Of a stretch of 64,000 nucleotides of DNA, positions 2,033 to 64,000 are shown piece by piece. Each line of letters starts with the position of its first letter. Position 1 is the first letter of the stretch. The DNA comes from a bacterium (GTDB taxonomy: Bacteria > Patescibacteriota > Minisyncoccia > Phycocordibacterales > UBA1006). The notes beneath the pieces are model-generated. The model was not told the origin of the DNA and did no database searches. It worked only from the letters and a program-made list of their open reading frames with translations. A program made the position numbers and the translations under genes. Location: contig JAYVHO010000011.1 in assembly GCA_043771175.1 (NCBI GenBank), positions 12,352-76,351 of the forward strand, in the 5' to 3' direction.

Positions 2033-5000
2033 CTTCTTATCATCTTTCTTTTCATCTTTTTTATCCGGTGCTTCTGCTTTGATTTTAGTTTTATTAAAAC
2101 TTGATGCAACCCTATTTCCATCTTTATCAATTTCCATACCTTGTATTCTATCGGTGAATGCGATGTGCTTATCGCGATATGTAACATCTCTATTTAATTT
2201 ACTCTCCATAGAAACTGCTGCTTTTTGAACACCTTTTTGGACTATTGACCTTGCTCCATCTACAAATGCGCTTCCTGTTGGCACTGCATTTGCCAAGTTA
2301 TTTGACATATCTTTCAACTTCTTTTCTGCAAATGCTTTAGCATTATCAATTTCAAAACTGGCATCATTAAGTGCTTCTGCTGCCATTCTAAAGGTACCCA
2401 GTGTTGCCACTTCAGAAACTCTTCGTGAAATATTATTAATTTTTATCCTCTGATCTTGGGTATGTTTTTTAATATCTTTAAAATCACTCTTTGATTCCTC
2501 TCGTAATTGTTCTTCTTGCTTAGAAACGTTCATATTTTGTTTTTTATACTCAGTATTTTTTGATTCATATTCTTTAAGCTGAACTGCCATTTCATCTTTA
2601 TCTTTTCCAAATTGACGCTCAAGGAATTTATCATATTCTTCCTCTTTATCCTTTTTTTCGTTCATAATTATATTAAGTTTTTCATCAGCATTTTTAGTTT
2701 CTCTCTCTACTTTTTCTTTCAAGTTTTTAAGTCTTTCTTTTTCATCAACAGCGCGTTTCAGTGGAGCTGCATTTGCAGCAGCTGTAGCTTTTAGGGTTGT
2801 GATATCAGCATCAAATGTTGCAATTTTTGCATCATTGTCATTCATCTCAAGCCTATTTGCATCTATTTTAAGTTGTATTGCATCTTTTTCTGGTTGTGTT
2901 GGCGCAACCATTTTCATTTGCTGTAACTGAATATCTTTTTGTTCCAATGTATTCTTGCGGTTTAATAAATTATTTTTATCACCAAGATCTTTAATGCTTT
3001 TTTCAACAGTAATTCTTTGTGCATCCAGCAAATCAAATCTCGTACTTGCCGTATTAAAATCTGTTACTGCATTTGTAATCAAAGCACTTTTTGCAATTGC
3101 ATCATTTTGAGAATTAACAATTCTTTGCACTTGCTGTATTTTTTTTGTAATCGAACCACTATTTTGCTTAATTTCTTCTTCTCTTGTTCTTTTTTCAACT
3201 CCTTCAAACTTTTTTAACTTTTCAATTCTCTCATCCAGATACAGTGTTGGATCAGCTAAAATAGTATTAGCACCATGCGCTGTTTCAAGTGCAACCAATT
3301 TTGCTGCATCATCGCGCTTTGCTTTTTTTTCTTTTTTAATATCATCAGTATCTGTTACCAAATCTGCTACATTATATGTTTTATTTTCAGCAAAATCTTG
3401 AGTGAGTGATGCTTTTGCTTTTCCTATCATTTCTGCAAAGTCAATTTTTGATTGTCTATGCTCTCTCAGTTTTAATGCCTTTGCATTGCGTTCATCAGTT
3501 GTCACAGCAGGCATGTTATTAATTTCTGCTAATGCGAATTCAAACATTTTTCCTTGCGCAGTTTCAATATCAAGAATTCTCTTTATAACACTACTAAGCG
3601 GGTTTTTAATAGGATTTGCACGATAACCATCAACCGCATCTTTTATCCCATTGGTTGCAAAATCAAGTGTTGTATTATCTGAGTATCCTCCATCGATATT
3701 ACTGATTGAGTTTCTCATTTTTTGATTATTTTTATCAAATTCATTAAAGTTTTTTTCATTACCATTAAATGCAGTGTCAACGATATCTTTCTTTTCATCT
3801 TCCATATTCTTTTTTGCTTCATCTCGTTTTACACGTTTTTCTTTCATGGCAATATCAAACTCTTCTTGTTTATCTTTTTTAATTTCATCGGCAAGTTTTT
3901 GATAATATTCATCAACCTTATTACCATGTGCTATTAGCCCTCCTTCACGCCCTTCTTTTATGAACGAAGAAAGATTGTATCCATACCCAAGCGGAATTCT
4001 TCCAACATCCAAATAATCTTTTCCAAAGATTTTTGTACTTTCAAAATCAACACCAGTATCAAGTTTCATACCAACCTTTTCTCCATATTTTTTAAATCCA
4101 CCCAATTTTTTACCCAAATCACGTGCATCCCATGATCCTTCTTTCCCATATTTTTGCATGCTCTTCATAGTATTTCCGCGTAAAAGTTGAAGGCGATTTG
4201 AAATTGCATTTCCTTTACCCGTTGCCATATTCATACGAGCTTGTCGTGCAACAGCTGCACCTTGTCCAAGTGTTTTACTCCCTGCAAACGCTGCGCCAAG
4301 TGTTGACCGTGCTGCCAGTCCAGCCCCACCCATCACCAGTCCTCCCACTGCCCCCACCACGCTTTTAGCGCCAGATGCCAAAAATTCGCCAAATGATGTA
4401 GAAAACTTATCGGTAACTTTTTTTGTCATAATAACAATTCCAAAAACAATTATGAGTGGAATCATCCAAAAAATTAACTCTTTGAAAAGTACATCCGCTG
4501 AAGCCCCTGGAGCAATAGTTGCGCTTGAAGAGGTAAACACAATTAAGTTAATAGAAACCACAGTTAGATACATCATAAATAAAAACACCGCTGGCTGAAA
4601 TGCCATTTTTGCAAGATTTGAAGTATATGATTCAAATCCAATTTCTTTGAGTGCTGGTAGATCAAACATTTTTTTAAGCCACGGAATATTTACTGATGAT
4701 AAAAAAGCAAGCGGCGATGCAATCATTAAAAACCAAAGACCAAACGTTCGCGCAAAAAAATAAAATGCAATATTTAAAAACATGTATATCATAAAAATAT
4801 ACATAATACTTCCAATAATAAGATAACTATAAATTACTACCCAACTACTATTAAAAGCACTCAAAGTATTACTACTACCTCCAATGGCAGTAACCAACCT
4901 TAAGGCATTAGATTTATTGATAACAGCAGCAGTAATAGATCTGACTTTCAGTGGAAACCCTGCCCCATCAAATTTTGCAACGTTACCATCTACTGAAGGA

Positions 5001-40125: not shown

Positions 40126-40199
40126 TGGTGCGGGCAGAGAGAATCGAACTCTCCTCCCCTGCTTGGAAGGCAGGTATTCTACCACTAAACCATGCCCGC
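40126..40199 (-). tRNA. tRNA-Gly (anticodon TCC), CCA encoded
   Basis: Manual cloverleaf: GCGGGCA acceptor, anticodon loop CTTCCAA, T-arm GAGAG-TTCGATT-CTCTC, 3' ACCA. Confidence 0.9.
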
Positions 40200-40263
40200 A
40201 TGTTTTGTGTGAAACCAGTATAGCAAAATTTGGCAAAAAGAAAAGGGCCATCTTGGCCCTTTC

Positions 40264-40866
40264 TTAAAAATCAATGGGATCTAACCCAAACTCTTCTTTA
40301 ATAATTTCTACAATTTGTTGATAAAGTTCTTTTTTTGTAGTCGACAAATTGTTTACAACAATGTAATCCGCTGCTTTTTCACCATCAATGGTTTCTGTTA
40401 CAGCCTTTTTTAACCTTTCATTCATGGATTCTTCGCTGGTGTCTCCTCTTGTTTCAAGCCTCTTCTTAAGAGTATTGATCAAATTATCCTTCGCAGTGAT
40501 AAAAACAAGAATAAGGTCTCTTTTCATATTTTCCTTTAATTCTATAGCTCCTTGAATATCCACATCAAGAAGTAAAATCTTACCTTCTGATTGGACACGA
40601 TGAACTTCAGATTTTGATGTTCCATAAAATTGACCTCGATATACTTCTTGATACTCAAGCATGTCTCCATCCTGAACCCTACTAAAAAACTGATTATGGT
40701 CAAGGTAATAATATGCATCATGTTTATCTCCAGCCCTATGTAATCGAGTTGTACACGAAACAGAAAATCCAAATTTACCAGGATAATGTGTTTCAATAAA
40801 AGTAACCAGTGTACTTTTCCCACCACCAGAAGGTGCCGTTACTGCGAGGGTTTTTTTATGATTCAT
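40264..40866 (-). CDS. gmk: Guanylate kinase
   Basis: P-loop APSGGGKST, TTR, YYY..F and E..YG motifs; start ATG 40866. Confidence 0.92.
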   Translation of the reverse strand: MNHKKTLAVTAPSGGGKSTLVTFIETHYPGKFGFSVSCTTRLHRAGDKHDAYYYLDHNQFFSRVQDGDMLEYQEVYRGQFYGTSKSEVHRVQSEGKILLLDVDIQGAIELKENMKRDLILVFITAKDNLINTLKKRLETRGDTSEESMNERLKKAVTETIDGEKAADYIVVNNLSTTKKELYQQIVEIIKEEFGLDPIDF

Positions 40867-40960
40867 TTCTTGCAATTTTTAGTTTAAAAAATATTTGAAT
40901 AACTATACCATATACCGCCAAAAACACCACATTTCTGTAGTGTTTATGGTGAAACAGTTT

Positions 40961-41314
40961 TTATTTCTTTGCATCAAGTTTATCCAAACCAAGTCCTTTA
41001 AAGAGAAAATATATTACGGCTGCAATGATAGCAAAATCAACTATCGCACTGACAAAACTTCCCCATCGTATTGCCGTTGTCCCAATCGAGATAATATGAG
41101 AAGAAAGGTCAGATGCACCTCCAAGAATAAGTCCTATCAGTGGATTAATCACATCATCCACTAATGATGAAACAGTCTTAGAAACAGCACCACCTAATAT
41201 AAACCCAACAGCAAGTCCCACTACCCCTTGTTCTTTAATAAAAGTCATAAAACCAGCCATTTTTGACTTTGCTTTTGCAGCATGCCCACCAATCATTTCT
41301 TCCATATGTTTCAC
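40961..41314 (-). CDS. mscL: Large-conductance mechanosensitive channel
   Basis: FIKEQGVVGLAVGFILGGA..INPLIG MscL pattern; true start may be ATG 41260. Confidence 0.85.
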   Translation of the reverse strand: MKHMEEMIGGHAAKAKSKMAGFMTFIKEQGVVGLAVGFILGGAVSKTVSSLVDDVINPLIGLILGGASDLSSHIISIGTTAIRWGSFVSAIVDFAIIAAVIYFLFKGLGLDKLDAKK

Positions 41315-41406
41315 ATATTACTTATATATTTGTATTATATCTCAAAGTCTTTGTTCGATTACCCTTTTCTTTAGTCTGTATATATGTTAGTATGAAAACA
41401 CAATTT

Positions 41407-41479
41407 CGGGGTGTGGTGTAACGGCTAACATGCTGGTTTTGGGTACCAGTGACTCCGGGTTCGAATCCCGGCACCCCGA
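41407..41479 (+). tRNA. tRNA-Pro (anticodon TGG), no encoded CCA
   Basis: Manual cloverleaf: CGGGGTG acceptor, anticodon loop TTTGGGT, T-arm CCGGG-TTCGAAT-CCCGG. Confidence 0.9.
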
Positions 41480-41488
41480 CTAATTAAC

Positions 41489-41845
41489 TTAAATCACTTC
41501 CACAAAAGTGATTTTTGTTTTGTGTTTAAAAATAAGCACCCTGACCCCGTATATTTTAATTGAAAATGAACAATATGTTTTCCATAATTTTTCTTTAAAG
41601 ACAGACTTGATTCTTTGGATCTTATTCTTGTCTATGGCACCAAGTGGGTCAACATGATCCTCAAGGTCATTATGAACAATCAGGGACTTTACTTCATATA
41701 TATACAAAGTTTTGTCCTTAATAGAAACAATATCTATCTCCCCTTTTTGACCATAAACATTTCTCTCAACAATAATGTGTCCTTTAAAAATCAGTGCGTC
41801 TGCAACCATATCTTCTGCCTTGTTTCCTTTATCACGTGTATGCAT
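41489..41845 (-). CDS. yraN: YraN family (UPF0102) endonuclease-like protein
   Basis: KGNKAEDMVADAL..ERNV..KGEIDIV..YIYEVK pattern. Confidence 0.8.
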   Translation of the reverse strand: MHTRDKGNKAEDMVADALIFKGHIIVERNVYGQKGEIDIVSIKDKTLYIYEVKSLIVHNDLEDHVDPLGAIDKNKIQRIKSVFKEKLWKTYCSFSIKIYGVRVLIFKHKTKITFVEVI

Positions 41846-41851
41846 TTCTTA

Positions 41852-41857
41852 ATTATA
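41852..41857 (-). promoter_or_regulatory. -10 box TATAAT, leaderless spacing
   Basis: 6 nt before ATG 41845. Confidence 0.5.
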
Positions 41858-41862
41858 CTTTT

Positions 41863-42111
41863 TGTCCATTATTGTTACTATTAATTTCTAACAGACTTAC
41901 TTGTTATTTTATTATGGACAAAAAGACATTTTACTATTGGACATTATAAAGGACATAAAAAAGTTATCCACATTTTATGGGTTTATACACCCACTTATCC
42001 ACAGTGATTTTTATAAACTGTTCAAAACTGTGGATAAACCTGTTTATAACCCATTTTCAAATGGACATATGTCCTTTATCTTAGCTCATTATGTCCAATA
42101 TATTATGGACA
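41863..42111. repeat. Array of TGGACA/TGTCCA iterons including palindrome GGACATATGTCC
   Basis: Sites at 41863, 41915, 41938, 41951, 42062, 42069, 42092 and 42106; palindrome 42063..42074. Confidence 0.75.
41964..42037. promoter_or_regulatory. Cluster of three perfect DnaA boxes (TTATCCACA)
   Basis: 41964..41972 (+), 41995..42003 (+), 42029..42037 (-); weaker TTATAAAC-type sites flank box 3. Confidence 0.8.
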
Positions 42112-42155
42112 TAACGGTCATAATATTCTCCACTTTCTTTTTTATATTTATACGC

Positions 42156-42161
42156 TATACT
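42156..42161 (+). promoter_or_regulatory. -10 box TATACT for the tRNA operon
   Basis: 11 nt before tRNA-Gly 5' end. Confidence 0.45.
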
Positions 42162-42172
42162 GTTTTTACTCA

Positions 42173-42243
42173 GCGGGTATGGTTTAGTGGTAGAATGCGT
42201 CCTTGCCAAGGACGAGACAGGAGTTCGATTCTCCTTACCCGCA
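42173..42243 (+). tRNA. tRNA-Gly (anticodon GCC), no encoded CCA
   Basis: Manual cloverleaf: GCGGGTA acceptor, anticodon loop TTGCCAA, T-arm AGGAG-TTCGATT-CTCCT. Confidence 0.9.
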
Positions 42244-42266
42244 CATTGAAGCACTAGCTTCAATAG

Positions 42267-42338
42267 GCACCTGTAGTGGAATGGATATCACGACTGACTT
42301 CGGATCAGTTATTCTAGGTTCGAATCCTAGCAGGTGCA
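42267..42338 (+). tRNA. tRNA-Arg (anticodon TCG), no encoded CCA
   Basis: Manual cloverleaf: GCACCTG acceptor, anticodon loop CTTCGGA, T-arm CTAGG-TTCGAAT-CCTAG. Confidence 0.88.
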
Positions 42339-58471: not shown

Positions 58472-60616
58472 ATGGCTGATACGAACAATACAATTTCATA
58501 TCAATTACCCAGAAGAAGCACGCTAGTTGATGAACAATCTGATCTTCGCAAACTTCAAGAAGAGGATTTATTAAAATCCCAAGCACCACTGCTTGGGATG
58601 ACCTATATTAATTTAAAAGCAACTCCGCTGACCAATGATGCACTGGGTTCTATTTCAGAAGAAACCGCACGCGCTGCACATTGCGCTGGTTTCAAATTAC
58701 TTAATAAAGAATTTTATGTGGCTCTGCGATTTCCAGAAAACACCACCTGGAAAGAACTTGAGCAAGAGCTTTTAAAAAAATATACCCTTCACATATTTTT
58801 AACATCAGAAGAAAGTCTTAATTTTGCATGGAACCATTACGCAGATATCAGCAAAGCAACTCGCTCAAGAGAATCACTTATTGACCTTTCGGAAGAAAGT
58901 ATTGCAGATATTGAAGCAAAAATCTCAACCAACAGTGATATACTTTCACTTTTTTCTACCATTTCAGAACAAGATCCACAAAGAATTTCTCGCATGATAG
59001 AAATTTTAATGGGAAGCGCAATCGCTACAAAATCTTCTGATATTCATGCAGAACCTACGGAAGATCATGTACGTATACGATATCGCCAAGATGGTGTATT
59101 GCAAGATGTATTAACCCTGTCACGTGAAACATATAAACAAATTATTTCTCGCATCAAAGTATTATCTGGATTAAAAATTACCAGAACCAACGAAGCACAA
59201 GACGGACGCTTTTCTATAAAATCTCATGAGAAAGATGTTGAAGTGCGTGTTTCAACCGTGCCCAGCGCCTATGGGGAAAGTCTAGTCATGCGTGTTTTGG
59301 ATCCTGAAGGTTTGCAGGTTGATTTAACATCACTCGGTTTTAACCAATCACTATTACCGCATCTTTTAAAAGAAATTATTCGCCCTGACGGACTGATTCT
59401 TACCTGTGGACCAACGGGTTCAGGTAAAACCACCACACTGTATTCTTTTTTAAAACATATTTATAGTCCAGATTCAAAAATTATCACCATTGAAGATCCT
59501 ATTGAGTATCATCTTGATGGTATTGAGCAAACCCAAGTTGAAACAGAAAAAGGATACACTTTTTTGTTGGGGCTTCGCTCTGCGCTTCGCCAAGACCCTG
59601 ATATTATCATGGTAGGAGAAATTCGTGATGGAGAAACAGCACAAACGGCAATTAATGCGTCACTGGCCGGCCACATGGTATTTTCAACACTCCACACCAA
59701 TTCCGCAGCGGGTGCTATTCCTCGTCTTCTTGATTTAAAAGTTTCTGGTGGAACACTTCGCTCGGCTCTTCACACCGTACTTGCGCAACGTCTTGTCAGA
59801 AAACTCTGTGAACATTGTAAAGCTCCATACACCACTTCGCCTGACGAAACAGAAACTATTCAAAGAATTATTGATAATGCCAGTGAATCAAAAGAATTAC
59901 TATCATATTTACCAGAAAAATTTACTCACGAGGGTGGTTCATTTACGTTCTTTAAACATGTTGGATGTCCACAGTGTGATGGTACTGGCTATAAAGGAAG
60001 AATTGGTATTTATGAAGGAATTTTAATGACTAAAAAAATAGAAGATTTACTGGAAAATAATAATATCCCCAGCGAACGTGATGTATGGGAAGCCGCAAAA
60101 GATCAAAGTATTTTAACGATGGGTGAAGATGCTGTCATAAAACTTCTTGGCGGAATAACGTCATACGAAGAAGCCGAGCGTGTAGTAGATTTAACCGGAT
60201 ATGGTCATATTTATGCAGAAAAAGAAATTATATCGTCACAAACATTTGCGCAAATAGAACATGAGGTTGAACATCATACAGAATCAAAAAATACAGAAAC
60301 ATACAAAGAGTCAGCAACACCTTTTGAACTTCTCATGAGCTATCTTGAACTACTCATTACCCAACAAATACAAAACCCACAAACAAACATTGTTCGACAA
60401 ATTGAATTAGTAAAACATGCTCTTAAAGAACTTGCGGATCACAACACAGAAGTTACTCTTCAAGCGCGCCACAACGACAACTCAGTGAATCATGAAGTTG
60501 ATACTCTTTTAAATTTTTTAGATGCATTATCTCTGCACCAACAAAAAAATCCGCACATAGGTGCGCAGCAAGAATTGAGTAATGTACAGTTGCATTTATC
60601 TGACTTACAAAAGTAA
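58472..60616 (+). CDS. pilB: Type IV pilus / type II secretion assembly ATPase (PilB/GspE family) with ~130-aa C-terminal extension
   Basis: Walker A GPTGSGKTTT, Asp/His boxes, CEHCK..CPQCDGTGYKGR tetracysteine motif. Confidence 0.9.
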   Translation: MADTNNTISYQLPRRSTLVDEQSDLRKLQEEDLLKSQAPLLGMTYINLKATPLTNDALGSISEETARAAHCAGFKLLNKEFYVALRFPENTTWKELEQELLKKYTLHIFLTSEESLNFAWNHYADISKATRSRESLIDLSEESIADIEAKISTNSDILSLFSTISEQDPQRISRMIEILMGSAIATKSSDIHAEPTEDHVRIRYRQDGVLQDVLTLSRETYKQIISRIKVLSGLKITRTNEAQDGRFSIKSHEKDVEVRVSTVPSAYGESLVMRVLDPEGLQVDLTSLGFNQSLLPHLLKEIIRPDGLILTCGPTGSGKTTTLYSFLKHIYSPDSKIITIEDPIEYHLDGIEQTQVETEKGYTFLLGLRSALRQDPDIIMVGEIRDGETAQTAINASLAGHMVFSTLHTNSAAGAIPRLLDLKVSGGTLRSALHTVLAQRLVRKLCEHCKAPYTTSPDETETIQRIIDNASESKELLSYLPEKFTHEGGSFTFFKHVGCPQCDGTGYKGRIGIYEGILMTKKIEDLLENNNIPSERDVWEAAKDQSILTMGEDAVIKLLGGITSYEEAERVVDLTGYGHIYAEKEIISSQTFAQIEHEVEHHTESKNTETYKESATPFELLMSYLELLITQQIQNPQTNIVRQIELVKHALKELADHNTEVTLQARHNDNSVNHEVDTLLNFLDALSLHQQKNPHIGAQQELSNVQLHLSDLQK

Positions 60617-60645
60617 TACTCGACAAGACTATCATTTCAATTATC

Positions 60646-60654
60646 TGGTATAAT
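60646..60654 (+). promoter_or_regulatory. Perfect extended -10 promoter TGGTATAAT
   Basis: 30 nt after pilB stop; no ORF of meaningful size follows. Confidence 0.6.
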
Positions 60655-60660
60655 AATGAA

Positions 60661-60871
60661 GTACACAGAAATGTATATTAAAAACCTACACATGAGTTTC
60701 TTAGCCATCCCATCCTCTAACAGATGCTTTGATAGTAGATGAGGATAAACACAGCCGAGGCCACATTGTCCTTTCTAATGTCTCAGACTTTCGCCGATGA
60801 CTAAGAAACTCACACATAGGTTATATGTATGTTCACCAGAAATTCCTCTTTATTTCAATAAAGGGGTTTTT
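60661..60871 (+). ncRNA. Candidate ~210-nt structured small RNA, unclassified
   Basis: Bounded by TGGTATAAT promoter and terminator; 12-bp perfect long-range helix 60693..60704 / 60801..60812 plus ACCT/AGGT extension. Confidence 0.4.
60845..60871 (+). terminator. Intrinsic terminator of candidate sRNA
   Basis: CCTCTTTA-TTTCAA-TAAAGGGG then TTTTT. Confidence 0.7.
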
Positions 60872-60942
60872 CTGTCACAATTAAGTTATATAAGATTGAA
60901 TATATCCTAGCATGGATTGTTTTATTTGTCAACTAAACAGTC

Positions 60943-60951
60943 TGCTATACT
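60943..60951 (+). promoter_or_regulatory. Extended -10 box TGCTATACT
   Basis: 13 nt before ruvB ATG. Confidence 0.5.
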
Positions 60952-60964
60952 TTACTAATTATAT

Positions 60965-61933
60965 ATGGCAAATCAAAAAGATGTTTCAAAAATTTCAGAT
61001 CATGACCTACGCCCTACATCATGGACTGACTATATTGGTCAAGACATGATTAAAAAAAATCTTTTAATTTTACTAGAAGCTGCCAGCTCACGCAGTGTTT
61101 CGCCTGATCATATTTTATTGTATGGACAACCAGGACTTGGTAAAACAACTCTGGCAAATTTGATTGCAAAACATTTAGGCACTAATTTAATTCAAACCAC
61201 GGGACCAGTAATTGAAAAGGCAAGTGATTTGACCAGTACATTGTCATCATTATCAGCTGGTGATGTGCTATTTATTGATGAAATTCACCGCTTACCAAAA
61301 AGCGTAGAAGAAATTTTATATCCTGCAATGGAATCTGGCACACTGGACATTATGGTTGGAAAAGGTCCATCAGCACGTACCGTACATATTGAACTGCAGC
61401 CATTCACCTTAATTGGCGCAACCACACGACTATCAGAACTCTCTTCACCACTAAGAAGTCGCTTCTCGGGGGGAATTTTTAAGCTTGAGCCGTATACTAC
61501 TGACGAATTAAGTCAGATCCTTATGCGCACAGCACAAATGTTACAACTACCCCACGACCATGAGGTGTTACAACATATTGCCAAGCGCTCACGCAGAACC
61601 CCAAGAACCGCAAATTATTATCTGCGTCGCGTTGGAGACTTGGCTCATATTCGTGGGATTAACATTACAGAAGATATTATCAATGAAGCGTTAACCATGT
61701 TAGGGATTTCTGAAGAAGGATTGACATTAGTTGATCAAGAATATATCCGCGCAGTACGTGATAAGTTTTCTGGTGGTCCGGTTGGAGTAAAAACTATTGC
61801 AGCGTCAATTGGTGAAGAATCCAGAACCGTTGAAGATGTTATTGAACCGTACCTGTTGTATGAAGGAATTATTGAAAAAACTTCATCAGGAAGAAAACTT
61901 ACCACACGTGGGTATGGGTTTAATATAAAGTAA
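60965..61933 (+). CDS. ruvB: Holliday junction branch migration helicase RuvB
   Basis: GQPGLGKTTLA Walker A, LFIDEIHRL, TTR sensor motifs. Confidence 0.96.
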   Translation: MANQKDVSKISDHDLRPTSWTDYIGQDMIKKNLLILLEAASSRSVSPDHILLYGQPGLGKTTLANLIAKHLGTNLIQTTGPVIEKASDLTSTLSSLSAGDVLFIDEIHRLPKSVEEILYPAMESGTLDIMVGKGPSARTVHIELQPFTLIGATTRLSELSSPLRSRFSGGIFKLEPYTTDELSQILMRTAQMLQLPHDHEVLQHIAKRSRRTPRTANYYLRRVGDLAHIRGINITEDIINEALTMLGISEEGLTLVDQEYIRAVRDKFSGGPVGVKTIAASIGEESRTVEDVIEPYLLYEGIIEKTSSGRKLTTRGYGFNIK

Positions 61934-61946
61934 TATTACCCACATG

Positions 61947-62243
61947 CCCGTCGTCCCGCTATATAACGAGTGACGTCATTTTTAGATGGATACAACTTTG
62001 TATTTCTCTTTTAATATAACCATCTCCACCAAATAAACATTTCTTTCCAAACTTCATCCTAAACGGCAAGCGAGATTAAAGAGAAATGCAGATGATAAAT
62101 CTAAGCATTTCTCTTAATAATCGAGTCCGAGCCTAGGGCGGTAGACCCACTGGTTATGGAAGTGATTTGTGGAGGTTAAGGCTTTAATGGGTAAGTACAA
62201 AAATAAATAGCCTGGATCCCGTTCTTCAACGGGATGACGGACA
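61947..62243. repeat. Widest inverted doublet of the hairpin repeat, enclosing a 234-nt structured spacer
   Basis: Degenerate CCCGTCGTCCCGCTATATAACGAGTGACG at 61947..61975; consensus GCCTGGATCCCGTTCTTCAACGGGATGACGGACA at 62210..62243. Confidence 0.7.
61982..62209 (+). other. Structured non-coding spacer (possible sRNA or MITE interior)
   Basis: GAGAAATGC-15 nt-GCATTTCTC hairpin with extension; outer CTCCAC(C)AAAT / ATTTGTGGAG pairing; only ORFs of 16 aa or fewer. Confidence 0.3.
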
Positions 62244-62269
62244 AAAGGCACGCGGAAAAAATTTTATTC

Positions 62270-62278
62270 TGTTATAAT
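62270..62278 (+). promoter_or_regulatory. Extended -10 box TGTTATAAT, leaderless spacing
   Basis: 6 nt before yebC ATG 62285. Confidence 0.5.
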
Positions 62279-62284
62279 TTTTAC

Positions 62285-62821
62285 ATGTCAGGACATAATA
62301 AATGGTCACAAATTAAAAATGCCAAAGCCAAAACAGATGGTGCGCGCTCAAAAGTGTTTGCTAAAATGGTAAAACTGTTATCTGTTGAGTCAAAAAAGGC
62401 GGGAGGTGATGTAAATTCACCTGGGCTTCGTAATGCTATTGAAAAAGCACGCAAAGTAAATATGCCTATGGATAATATTGACCGAGCTGTTAAAAAGGGA
62501 ACGGATGGTAGTGAATCACTTGAAAAAGTTATCTATGAGATTTATGGGCCAGAAGGTTCACAGATTATTGTAACAGCACTTACTGATAGTACTAACAGAA
62601 CCAATCAAGAGATTAAACATCTCGTTTCAAAAAATGGAGCATCTATGGGCGGAGCAGGTTCTGTGATGTGGAATTTTACCTTTGATGTACAAACCAGTGA
62701 ATACACCCCTCAAACCAGTATGGAAATTTCTGATTCTGCAGAAGAAACACTCAATAATCTTCTTTCATTACTTGATGATCATGATGACGTTGAAGATATT
62801 TTCACAAATATTTCAGAATAA
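62285..62821 (+). CDS. yebC: YebC/PmpR family protein (short, 178 aa)
   Basis: MSGHNKWSQIKNAKAKTDGARSKVFAK.. signature N-terminus; between ruvB and ruvC. Confidence 0.9.
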   Translation: MSGHNKWSQIKNAKAKTDGARSKVFAKMVKLLSVESKKAGGDVNSPGLRNAIEKARKVNMPMDNIDRAVKKGTDGSESLEKVIYEIYGPEGSQIIVTALTDSTNRTNQEIKHLVSKNGASMGGAGSVMWNFTFDVQTSEYTPQTSMEISDSAEETLNNLLSLLDDHDDVEDIFTNISE

Positions 62822-62823
62822 TT

Positions 62824-63303
62824 ATGAAAATTATTGGAATTGACCCCGGATACGAGCGTCTTGGTATTGCACTCATAGAATCTACATCACGTATTTCTTC
62901 TATATATATCAATTCACAGTGTTTTAAAACCAAAAAAGAGCTTGATTTTAACCAAAGACTCTCAGAAATTGTTTCACATGTTACAGAACTTATTTTACAA
63001 GAACAACCAGAAGCCTTAGTTATTGAGCTTTTATTTTTTAATACTAATCAAAAAACCGCATTATTTGTTTCAGAAGTACGTGGCGCATTAAAAGGAATTG
63101 CTATTTTATATAAGGTAAAAATATTTGAATTAACCCCTTTACAAATCAAAAGTGCAATAACTGGGCATGGTCAAGCGTCTAAAGATTCTGTAGCGTTTAT
63201 GATTCCAAAACTCATTAAATTACCTGACAAAAAAATGATTGATGATGAGATGGACGCGATTGCTATTGCACTTGCGGGGATTGCTCATTTTTCGTTATAT
63301 TAA
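62824..63303 (+). CDS. ruvC: Crossover junction endodeoxyribonuclease RuvC
   Basis: MKIIGIDPGYERLG.., E..F.., DEMDAIAIAL catalytic acidic residues. Confidence 0.92.
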   Translation: MKIIGIDPGYERLGIALIESTSRISSIYINSQCFKTKKELDFNQRLSEIVSHVTELILQEQPEALVIELLFFNTNQKTALFVSEVRGALKGIAILYKVKIFELTPLQIKSAITGHGQASKDSVAFMIPKLIKLPDKKMIDDEMDAIAIALAGIAHFSLY

Positions 63304-63379
63304 CTATTTACACATAATAAATTATATGTTTTTGCCATATTTTTGTGGTAAAATTATACAAACAATAAAACACTTTTTT

Positions 63380-64000
63380 ATGATAGAACACCTCAAAAAA
63401 CACAAAAAACTGGTTTTTAGAAAATGGTCAGACAACCCAATTGTTCGCTTTTTTGAATCCATGATTATTATCAGCGTTTCTGGTATTTTTCTATTAGTAG
63501 GAATGCTTTTTTTATGGGTATCACTATTACAAGTTCCACCGCTTGAAGGGTTTCATGAACGTATTGTTTCAAATTCAACAAAAATATATGATCGCACCGG
63601 AAAAGTTGTTTTATATGACATTTTTGAAAACGCACAAAGAACCATTGTTCCTCTGGATAAAATCTCTCCACTTATACTCAAAGCGGTTATTTCAACGGAA
63701 GATAGAAATTTCTATACTCACCACGGAATTGATATAAAATCTACCGCTCGCGCTATTACTTATACTGCACTCAACAAATTAGGAATCAATAAAAATCTTG
63801 CCGTACAAGGTGGATCAACCATCACTCAACAAGTTTTAAAAAACACCGTATTAACCACCGACAGAACCGTGACGAGAAAAATTAAGGAATGGTTTTTGGC
63901 GGTACGTCTGGAACAAAAACTTTCAAAAAATGAAATCATTGAACATTATTTAAATGAAATTCCGTTTGGAGGATCATTATATGGAATAGAAGAAGCTGCA
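63380..64000 (+). CDS. Class A penicillin-binding protein, N-terminal glycosyltransferase (GT51) part, truncated by window end
   Basis: Open frame to window edge: TM anchor, STEDRNFYTHHGID, GGSTITQQ, RKIKEW motifs; absent from ORF track (no stop). Confidence 0.9.
   Translation, partial: MIEHLKKHKKLVFRKWSDNPIVRFFESMIIISVSGIFLLVGMLFLWVSLLQVPPLEGFHERIVSNSTKIYDRTGKVVLYDIFENAQRTIVPLDKISPLILKAVISTEDRNFYTHHGIDIKSTARAITYTALNKLGINKNLAVQGGSTITQQVLKNTVLTTDRTVTRKIKEWFLAVRLEQKLSKNEIIEHYLNEIPFGGSLYGIEEAA

Follow-up and report, generated by a model that had tools for sequence, protein, structure and literature searches.

The Candidate Phyla Radiation (CPR, or Patescibacteria) makes up a large share of bacterial diversity, and to our knowledge essentially nothing is known of its non-coding RNAs beyond ribosomal RNA, tRNA, RNase P RNA, signal recognition particle (SRP) RNA and transfer-messenger RNA (tmRNA). 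Here we describe an RNA that is very probably encoded on the minus strand between pilB and ruvB in a CPR genome (contig JAYVHO010000011.1 of assembly GCA_043771175.1), and that recurs at the same place in related genomes. The 64,000-nt stretch of that contig that was analyzed is termed the window, and positions refer to it unless another locus is named.

Several described RNAs resemble it in part. 6S RNA is likewise a lineage-universal non-coding RNA of about 150-270 nt, with its 5′ and 3′ ends held in a long closing stem, an irregular centre and a terminal stem, and it too has a conserved structure with low sequence conservation. SRP (4.5S) RNA shares a rod in which a few invariant internal-loop nucleotides lie near the apex within a covarying helix, as would be expected of a protein-binding site. 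The Y RNA YrlA and other RNAs whose genes adjoin that of their protein partner (tmRNA-smpB, OLE-oapA) provide parallels for a terminal stem formed from both ends together with a branched module, and for a strictly conserved neighbourhood; PilB and RuvB, for their part, are not known to bind RNA. The antisense RNAs CopA, FinP and RNAI are comparable in being highly structured and transcribed from a strong promoter against the 5′ region of a neighbour, with an opposing promoter in many loci. Lastly, raiA, OLE and GOLLD/ROOL were recognized, as here, through covariation and conserved context, and their function was open at discovery.

Strand, fold and family of the RNA

The pilB-like open reading frame (ORF) of the window (58472-60616) encodes a Pfam T2SSE domain, and ruvB lies at 60965-61933. 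A first-pass annotation had placed a discrete structured non-coding RNA in the flagged region between the two, read on the plus strand as a small RNA of ~210 nt that runs from an extended -10 element TGGTATAAT at 60646 to a terminator at 60845-60871. All of the features on which it drew are present at the positions it gave: these two signals, the extended -10 element TGCTATACT of ruvB, the hairpin ACATT-9 nt-AATGT at 60763-60781 and a perfect 12-bp pairing of 60693-60704 with 60801-60812. The last is flanked by ACCT/AGGT and falls within repeat arms at 60683-60709 and 60796-60822. Its 12-mer occurs once in the window, and so is not a dispersed repeat. Generic promoter-like and terminator-like sites are not enriched around this AT-rich region (17 seen and 23 expected, and 6 compared with 3.4, respectively), and the weight therefore comes solely from conservation. 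The plus strand folds with -64.8 kcal/mol (z = -6.95, equalled in 0 of 200 shuffles) and the minus strand with -67.6 kcal/mol (z = -5.17 versus shuffled sequence).

The strand was examined using the nearest relative, locus L161, the RuvB of which is 84% identical. The intergenic alignment of the two is good precisely over the proposed RNA. When it was folded on each strand with alifold, the minus strand gave -63.95 and the plus strand -47.4 kcal/mol. The minus-strand fold contains 51 predicted pairs, none of which is broken in either sequence; eight are changed on both sides, and a further six on one side via G·U with pairing kept. Eleven G·U pairs in the minus-strand structure of the window become A·C mismatches on the plus strand. 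For example, the plus strand seems to have a CACA/CACA internal loop, which on the other strand becomes UGUG/UGUG and forms G·U pairs, so that the closing helix P1 is an uninterrupted 27 bp. The arms of P1 are 81% complementary as DNA and 100% complementary as minus-strand RNA. Across 16 members of the family (see below), G·U and A·C appositions occur in the ratio 80:16 when read on the minus strand. The scores with covariance model R1 are 184 bits on the minus and 36 on the plus strand; with model R2 the window scores 145 and 26 bits, being itself one of the six sequences in R2.

The conserved fold is thus that of the minus strand, and the strand assigned by the first-pass annotation has to be reversed. 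A functional structured RNA on the plus strand has in its favour the promoter and terminator found there in the window, the low z of its fold, and an extended -10 element that is kept in L161 as TGATATACT. A sequence TGnTAnnnT is found on the plus strand no more than 75 nt before the base of P1 in 11 of 18 loci (mean 2.1, maximum 6 in 1000 shuffles). However, the promoter is missing at that position in the other 7 of the 18 loci, the terminator is absent from L161, where the sequence of its hairpin is not kept, 10-11 G·U pairs become A·C mismatches, and with the models the plus strand scores five- to sixfold lower. The inner hairpins that had been noted, ACATT/AATGT and ATCCTC/GAGGAT, are not kept in the relative and do not covary, and it is other helices that do so. 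A structured plus-strand RNA is accordingly very improbable. Because of the enrichment of the extended -10 element, a long leader of ruvB, or a transcript antisense to the RNA, is plausible in many lineages; the plus strand may thus be transcribed in one of these forms, which we regard as a realistic possibility, but is not the strand under structural selection.

Relatives of the window are sparse at the protein level. RuvB gave no match above 58% identity in scans of genomes and metagenomes, and a single cluster at 84% in the protein database with the rest at 61% or below; one member of the 84% cluster carries the label Candidatus Paceibacterota. The contigs of the relative, L161-L163 and, from GCA_036405175.1 (NCBI), L173, likewise show pilB - gap - ruvB - ruvC. 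When 166 ruvB loci, taken from genomes and metagenomes, were searched with model R1, which had been built from the window and L161 alone, five distant CPR loci matched with E-values of 2.5e-10 to 6e-3. All five matches lie immediately upstream of ruvB, on the other strand from that gene. Alignment of six members with MAFFT, blind to structure, returned the same P1 and P3 helices, with compensatory change in 26 of 42 pairs. The second model, R2, located 22 distinct loci with the RNA, in every case upstream of ruvB and on the minus strand. These are the window, L161, L001-L006, L008, L081-L083, L085-L088, L091 and L103, together with L084 (where the copy is cut by the contig end), L007 (seen with filters off) and L167 and L171 (on newly fetched contigs). 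There was no credible match among ~140 non-CPR ruvB loci.

In the alignment of 16 sequences 91% of the cells pair and 33 of the 42 pairs have double changes; none of 500 shuffles of the columns attains any of five measures. Pairing falls to 40-47% when the partners are displaced by ±1-3 columns. The fold covaries across lineages in which RuvB is only about 55% identical. The search for homologues and the covariation analysis therefore bear out that a gene for a structured non-coding RNA lies between pilB and ruvB, and we hold with high confidence that gene, minus strand, fold and family are together correctly assigned.

Each locus examined (about 7-21 kb) has one copy of the RNA, as do the 64 kb of the window. 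It is found in essentially all of the Paceibacteria/Parcubacteria-type CPR loci examined (about 24 loci sampled), with the same antisense placement, pilB on one side and ruvB-ruvC on the other. A public member lies at about 588068-588226 of contig DASWYC010000002.1 of GCA_036405175.1. Long rods occupy the same slot on the minus strand in L007 (2693-2863), L062 (2682-2896) and L170 (3744-4000), those of L062 and L170 being seen by folding. In these the canonical AGGAC/UAUCCU loop is lacking or variant (GAGGAU...AUCCUC in L170), and they are divergent subfamilies or replacements. The metagenome-assembled genomes (MAGs) of L002-L006 are titled ‘Candidatus Saccharibacteria’, and their RuvB proteins share 84-88% identity with proteins that bear the names Kaiserbacteria or Parcubacteria. 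As the neighbours of the L006 RuvB are named Kaiserbacteria, the ‘Saccharibacteria’ labels are open to doubt, and the most apt description of the family is Paceibacteria/Parcubacteria-type CPR.

The same data bear on two readings that involve no functional RNA of this kind. A DNA-level element, i.e. an inverted repeat, an insertion resembling a miniature inverted-repeat transposable element (MITE), or a bidirectional pilB terminator, would explain the 27-nt inverted repeat just past pilB, and many loci do have a genuine bidirectional terminator between pilB and the RNA. Yet the repeat is single-copy in 64 kb, its arms pair fully as minus-strand RNA and incompletely as DNA, and the preference for G·U over A·C, the covarying inner helices, the invariant loop and the dedicated promoter all speak against such an element; this explanation is highly improbable. 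P1 was also considered as the intrinsic terminator of pilB, and rejected. On the plus strand the A/T-run precedes P1 and does not follow it, and other loci have a separate true terminator.

The second is a small protein or type I toxin. The region had been said to hold ORFs of only 21-23 codons, but longer ones, of 28, 37 and 38 codons, overlap it, none of them conserved. The 38-codon minus-strand ORF (60701-60817) has its frame open in L161 as well, where, however, the position of its start codon is occupied by ACG. Among the homologues the longest open stretches switch strand and frame, the spacing of the invariant blocks varies by non-multiples of three, and the predicted peptide is not hydrophobic. 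We give this reading practically no weight.

Architecture and transcription signals

The covarying core of the RNA extends from 60822 to 60683, and the whole transcription unit from ~60897 to ~60678, roughly 220 nt between predicted ends. Its elements are listed in the table. Starting at the 5′ end, the strand passes through the leader and forms the 5′ strand of P1. P1 closes a junction that bears the small hairpins P2 and P4 and the long arm P3, after which the strand returns as the 3′ strand of P1 and would end in the U-run.

Features of the pilB-ruvB interval in the window, with the strand on which each is read
Feature	Position	Strand	Remarks
-35 hexamer TTGACA	60927-60932	-	From promoter scan; kept in the 84% relative amid diverged sequence
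Extended -10 TGCTAGGAT (TGCTAAGAT in the relative)	60904-60912	-	Start predicted near 60897
Predicted 5′ leader, 75 nt	60823-60897	-	Poorly conserved sequence; contains stable hairpin 60837-60874
P1, 5′ strand of 27-bp closing helix	60796-60822	-	Covariation
P1, 3′ strand	60683-60709	-	Pairs with 60796-60822
P2, mini-hairpin GGC-GAAA-GUC	60786-60795	-	GNRA loop; GCAA in L161
P1b (possible)	UGA 60785-60783 with UCA 60732-60730	-	Short helix
P3 arm	60736-60777	-	AGGAC 60768-60772 with UAUCCU 60742-60747, then 8-bp helix and loop CUCG
P4, hairpin CAUCU-GUUAGA-GGAUG	60711-60726	-	Comparison of window and L161
U-run, predicted 3′ end	60678-60682	-	At foot of P1; last two U of P1 plus UUU make five
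Extended -10 TGGTATAAT	60646-60654	+	30 nt past pilB stop; possible antisense promoter
ruvB extended -10 TGCTATACT	60943-60951	+	13 nt before ATG at 60965; back-to-back with RNA promoter
Hairpin	arms 60837-60854 and 60857-60874	both	On +, terminator (60845-60866 plus TTTTT); on -, leader hairpin without U-run

All 27 pairs of P1 are kept between the window and L161, five of them by compensatory change. Across the 16 sequences 24 of the 27 pairs have double changes and 92% of the cells are paired. P3 contains a 1x2 internal loop (C / UA) between AGGAC and UAUCCU. Of the AGGA/UCCU pairs, three are present in 16/16 sequences and the fourth in 15/16 (1 of 64 cells differs), and the three loop nucleotides are essentially invariant. 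The 8-bp helix beyond has conserved U·G, G·U and G-C steps, with G87-C121 found in 16/16 and G86·U122 in 13/16 sequences, and five of the eight outer pairs covary. In P4 the window and L161 differ by two compensatory changes; all lineages have a hairpin at its position, which aligns poorly, while a hairpin at the position of P2 is present in most lineages, not all.

Further variation between lineages affects the length of the P3 apex and the leader, which is of 15-110 nt and usually bears a hairpin. Members of the Kaiserbacteria type have only ~9 nt between P1 and P3 on the 5′ side. In L081, L082 and L167 an additional helix P0 is formed by pairing of GAUUCGAUAG at the 5′ end with CUAUCGAAU in the 3′ tail. 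The 3′ tail of these three could alternatively form a hairpin of its own, CUAUC-GAA-GAUAG.

The minus-strand promoter in the window has the consensus form TTGACA-17-TGcTAGGAT. In 17 of 18 loci a sequence TTGACN-N13-15-TGnTAnnnT precedes the RNA on this strand (mean 0.02 and maximum 1 in shuffles), and it replaces the plus-strand element as the predicted promoter of the RNA. The hairpin that had been taken as its terminator is, on the minus strand, located in the leader. At the opposite end a U-run directly 3′ of P1 occurs in 8 of 18 loci, and the corresponding plus-strand sequence AAAAACC is kept in L161. The remaining loci have a separate hairpin terminator 20-60 nt past P1, often bidirectional and serving pilB too. 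Judged from their sequences, the promoter and the U-run would be used as the signals for initiation and termination. A further terminator-like hairpin is found on the minus strand at 60551-60568, ~110 nt past P1 and inside the 3′ end of pilB, where CTGCGCACCTATGTGCGG is followed by ATTTTTTT; this is apparently not conserved in L161.

Relation to known RNA families

A scan of the whole window with Rfam 15 at the gathering threshold returned only four tRNAs (40129-42338), and with permissive filters (E<=10) the best match within 60550-61000 had E = 6.5, i.e. at chance level. There was no family match in slices of L006 and L081 at E<=10, in six loci at E<=1 or in 17 loci at gathering threshold, and ARAGORN found no tRNA or tmRNA in 60400-61100. 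A match to a known family, which would have made the RNA of the first-pass annotation an old acquaintance, is thus lacking. Nor is this RNA described in the literature searched, including two genome surveys of the Breaker laboratory, which cover no CPR genomes. It represents a previously uncatalogued RNA family.

Of the possible analogues 6S RNA is the best known, and the first-pass annotation had left room for a 6S-like RNA. A lineage-specific equivalent of 6S RNA would act as a mimic of a promoter, occupying the RNA polymerase holoenzyme until released by synthesis of a product RNA. By analogy this would suit a lineage-universal RNA of this size with a strong promoter, paired ends, a central branched region and a terminal stem, and no canonical 6S RNA was seen in the CPR sequence examined, although at ~200 kb this is weak evidence. 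However, RF00013 and related models gave no match at gathering threshold, nor with permissive filters at E<=10 on the window and on the L006 and L081 slices. The centre differs from that of 6S RNA in being a closed three- or four-way junction (P2, P1b, P4) with few unpaired nucleotides and no large open bubble. The short helices of the junction could melt on binding, so that the closed centre is not decisive on this point. 6S stems are characterized by bulges, whereas the 27-bp closing stem here is uninterrupted, and we know of no 6S counterpart of the invariant AGGAC/UAUCCU loop. The closing and terminal stems expected of a 6S-like RNA are present, and the Rfam match and open bubble are not; the suggestion is neither supported nor excluded by these comparisons, and we consider such an equivalent unlikely.

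The other resemblances are limited by clear differences. Helix 8 of SRP RNA has a GNRA tetraloop with conserved symmetric and asymmetric loops. No such GNRA-capped helix is found here and there is no Rfam hit; the junction carries side hairpins, and the apex is CUCG, CUAG or an extension of variable length and sequence. A specific proposal of SRP RNA on the basis of CAGCCGAGGC was rejected, as that sequence has no GNRA-capped helix and is on the wrong strand. In contrast to YrlA and tmRNA there is no rsr/Ro gene nearby, no tRNA-like module and no Rfam hit. raiA, OLE and GOLLD/ROOL have other sequences and folds and gave no Rfam match, and the present RNA is so far confined to CPR/Paceibacteria-type genomes.

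Some further identities were considered and set aside. In RNase P RNA the regions CR-I and CR-V form P4. Here GAAAGUCUGAG could pair with CUCGGCU in the P4 register, with a bulged U, but the motif is not conserved in the family. A CR-I-like GAAAGUC occurs only in the window and L161, there is no model hit, and the length of the RNA is under half of what is usual. L173 has rnpA, and a normal RNase P RNA is therefore expected elsewhere. CUGAUGA strings resembling the hammerhead have a mismatched core, and an S15-like G·U/G-C motif by the junction is too small to weigh, with no rpsO context. A riboswitch or cis-acting leader is incompatible with the gene arrangement: the next gene on the minus side is pilB, in opposite orientation, and a 27-bp P1 leaves no plausible switch.

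Genomic context and proposed role

The recurring gene order is pilB (T2SSE) - RNA - ruvB - [yebC] - ruvC, with the RNA antisense. yebC lies between ruvB and ruvC in the window (62234-64000), L167 and L171. The statement that the unit is not simply a leader of ruvB holds for the structured RNA, which runs antisense to that gene. In six loci (L001, L003, L004, L083, L085 and L088) the -35 element of the RNA overlaps the start codon of ruvB (ATGTCAA, plus strand). In L001 (at ~2950), L004, L083 and L088 a plus-strand TGnTATAAT, presumed to be the ruvB promoter, lies inside the 5′ leader of the RNA. The units of the RNA and of ruvB are thus interlocked, head to head.

This arrangement raises the possibility that the RNA acts primarily in cis to throttle ruvB(-ruvC), through transcriptional interference from its strong antisense promoter or through RNase III cleavage of a duplex between the RNA and the overlapping ruvB 5′ UTR or read-through transcripts. 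The position is invariant across deep divergence, and the overlaps of the -35 element with the ruvB ATG and of the ruvB promoters with the leader point in the same direction. Moreover, where a plus-strand promoter lies beyond the 3′ end of the RNA (11 of 18 loci), the ruvB leader or antisense RNA would be fully complementary to it. However, in the window and L161 the ruvB promoter is downstream of that of the RNA, and there is hence no overlap with the ruvB mRNA; in loci of the L001 type the overlap is only ~13 nt. This absent or minimal overlap in several lineages also distinguishes the RNA from CopA, FinP and RNAI, as does the location of its conserved features, which are internal and not in kissing loops. 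Neither interference nor simple antisense pairing calls for an invariant internal loop, a conserved junction or selection on one strand for helices with G·U. Cis control as the primary function is in our estimate rather unlikely, if less so than a 6S equivalent.

We tentatively propose that the RNA acts in trans, bound by a protein for which it would serve as scaffold or decoy, in analogy to the protein-binding RNAs discussed above; we put the chance of this, the 6S-like decoy of RNA polymerase included, at a little short of even. An abundant RNA bound by protein is suggested because of the consensus promoter, the paired termini, the long covarying stem and the invariance of AGGA/UCCU and the three loop nucleotides. 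In such a mechanism the RNA would be stable and strongly transcribed, with the invariant loop and the junction as its recognition surface. P1, extended in some lineages by P0, would be a stem for stability or processing, and has the length of an RNase III substrate. The fixed position could be maintained by the interlocked signals, given that the -35 element adjoins the start or promoter of ruvB, or overlaps with it, and that the terminator is often the bidirectional terminator of pilB. The overlap of the RNA promoter with the ruvB start and the shared pilB terminator also make mutual transcriptional interference with ruvB likely. Taken as a whole, we favour with moderate confidence a new family of stable, probably protein-binding RNAs encoded on the minus strand.

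A number of points weigh against this interpretation. The role in trans is proposed by analogy. A cis or antisense role would be just as compatible with the strictly conserved position and with the plus-strand promoters that read through the gene in 11 of 18 loci. Both ends of the RNA are predicted, only a short U-run follows P1, and a stem of 27 bp around ~90 nt is atypical of a terminator. In L161 (~2666-2700) and L170 (~3905-3935) the promoter on the minus strand is separated from P1 by a hairpin followed by a U-run; in L170 its GC-rich 6-bp stem and U5 resemble a bidirectional terminator. These hairpins may end transcripts ahead of the RNA, attenuate its synthesis or stabilize its 5′ end. 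Finally, the E-values of home-made covariance models are rough, and since MAG taxon labels are unreliable the breadth of the family beyond Paceibacteria-type lineages is uncertain.

The place taken by the RNA is that of a different gene in other bacteria. Using tblastn with one RuvA query (E<1e-3), ruvA was found directly upstream of ruvB in ~95 non-CPR loci, nearly all of them. The same search of the window and the fetched loci found no ruvA in the RNA-bearing CPR loci and none in the 64-kb window. The RNA gene therefore occupies the usual slot of ruvA. In L073, which has the classical ruvA-ruvB arrangement, there is no such RNA. It is conceivable that the branched RNA regulates, recruits or titrates RuvB/RuvC, mimicking or acting on a branched-DNA recombination intermediate, with ruvA not beside ruvB and perhaps missing from these genomes. 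We regard this as a long shot.

A strong promoter, a covarying fold, an unchanging internal loop and a fixed address are hallmarks of an important RNA-protein complex or regulator. Were the RNA a regulator of the 6S type, it would show how minimal cells shut down transcription; were it tied to ruvB, it would add a new layer of recombination control in organisms that depend on DNA uptake by type IV pili. In either case it presents a concrete and easily testable target, since a covariance model for the family now exists. A cultured Paceibacteria-type bacterium is available in Minisyncoccus archaeiphilus (PMC12281837). For annotation the locus carries a warning, in that reading from promoter to terminator on one strand chose the wrong strand.

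Two minor observations concern the surroundings of the gene. In L173 (14505-19574) the locus is a few kb from dnaN, dnaA, rpmH, rnpA, yidD and yidC, i.e. near the presumed replication origin. The PilB proteins of the window and L161 have 714 and 711 aa, respectively, compared with about 555-631 aa in other CPR loci, and the surplus of ~140 residues is a low-complexity C-terminal tail rich in Q, E and H.

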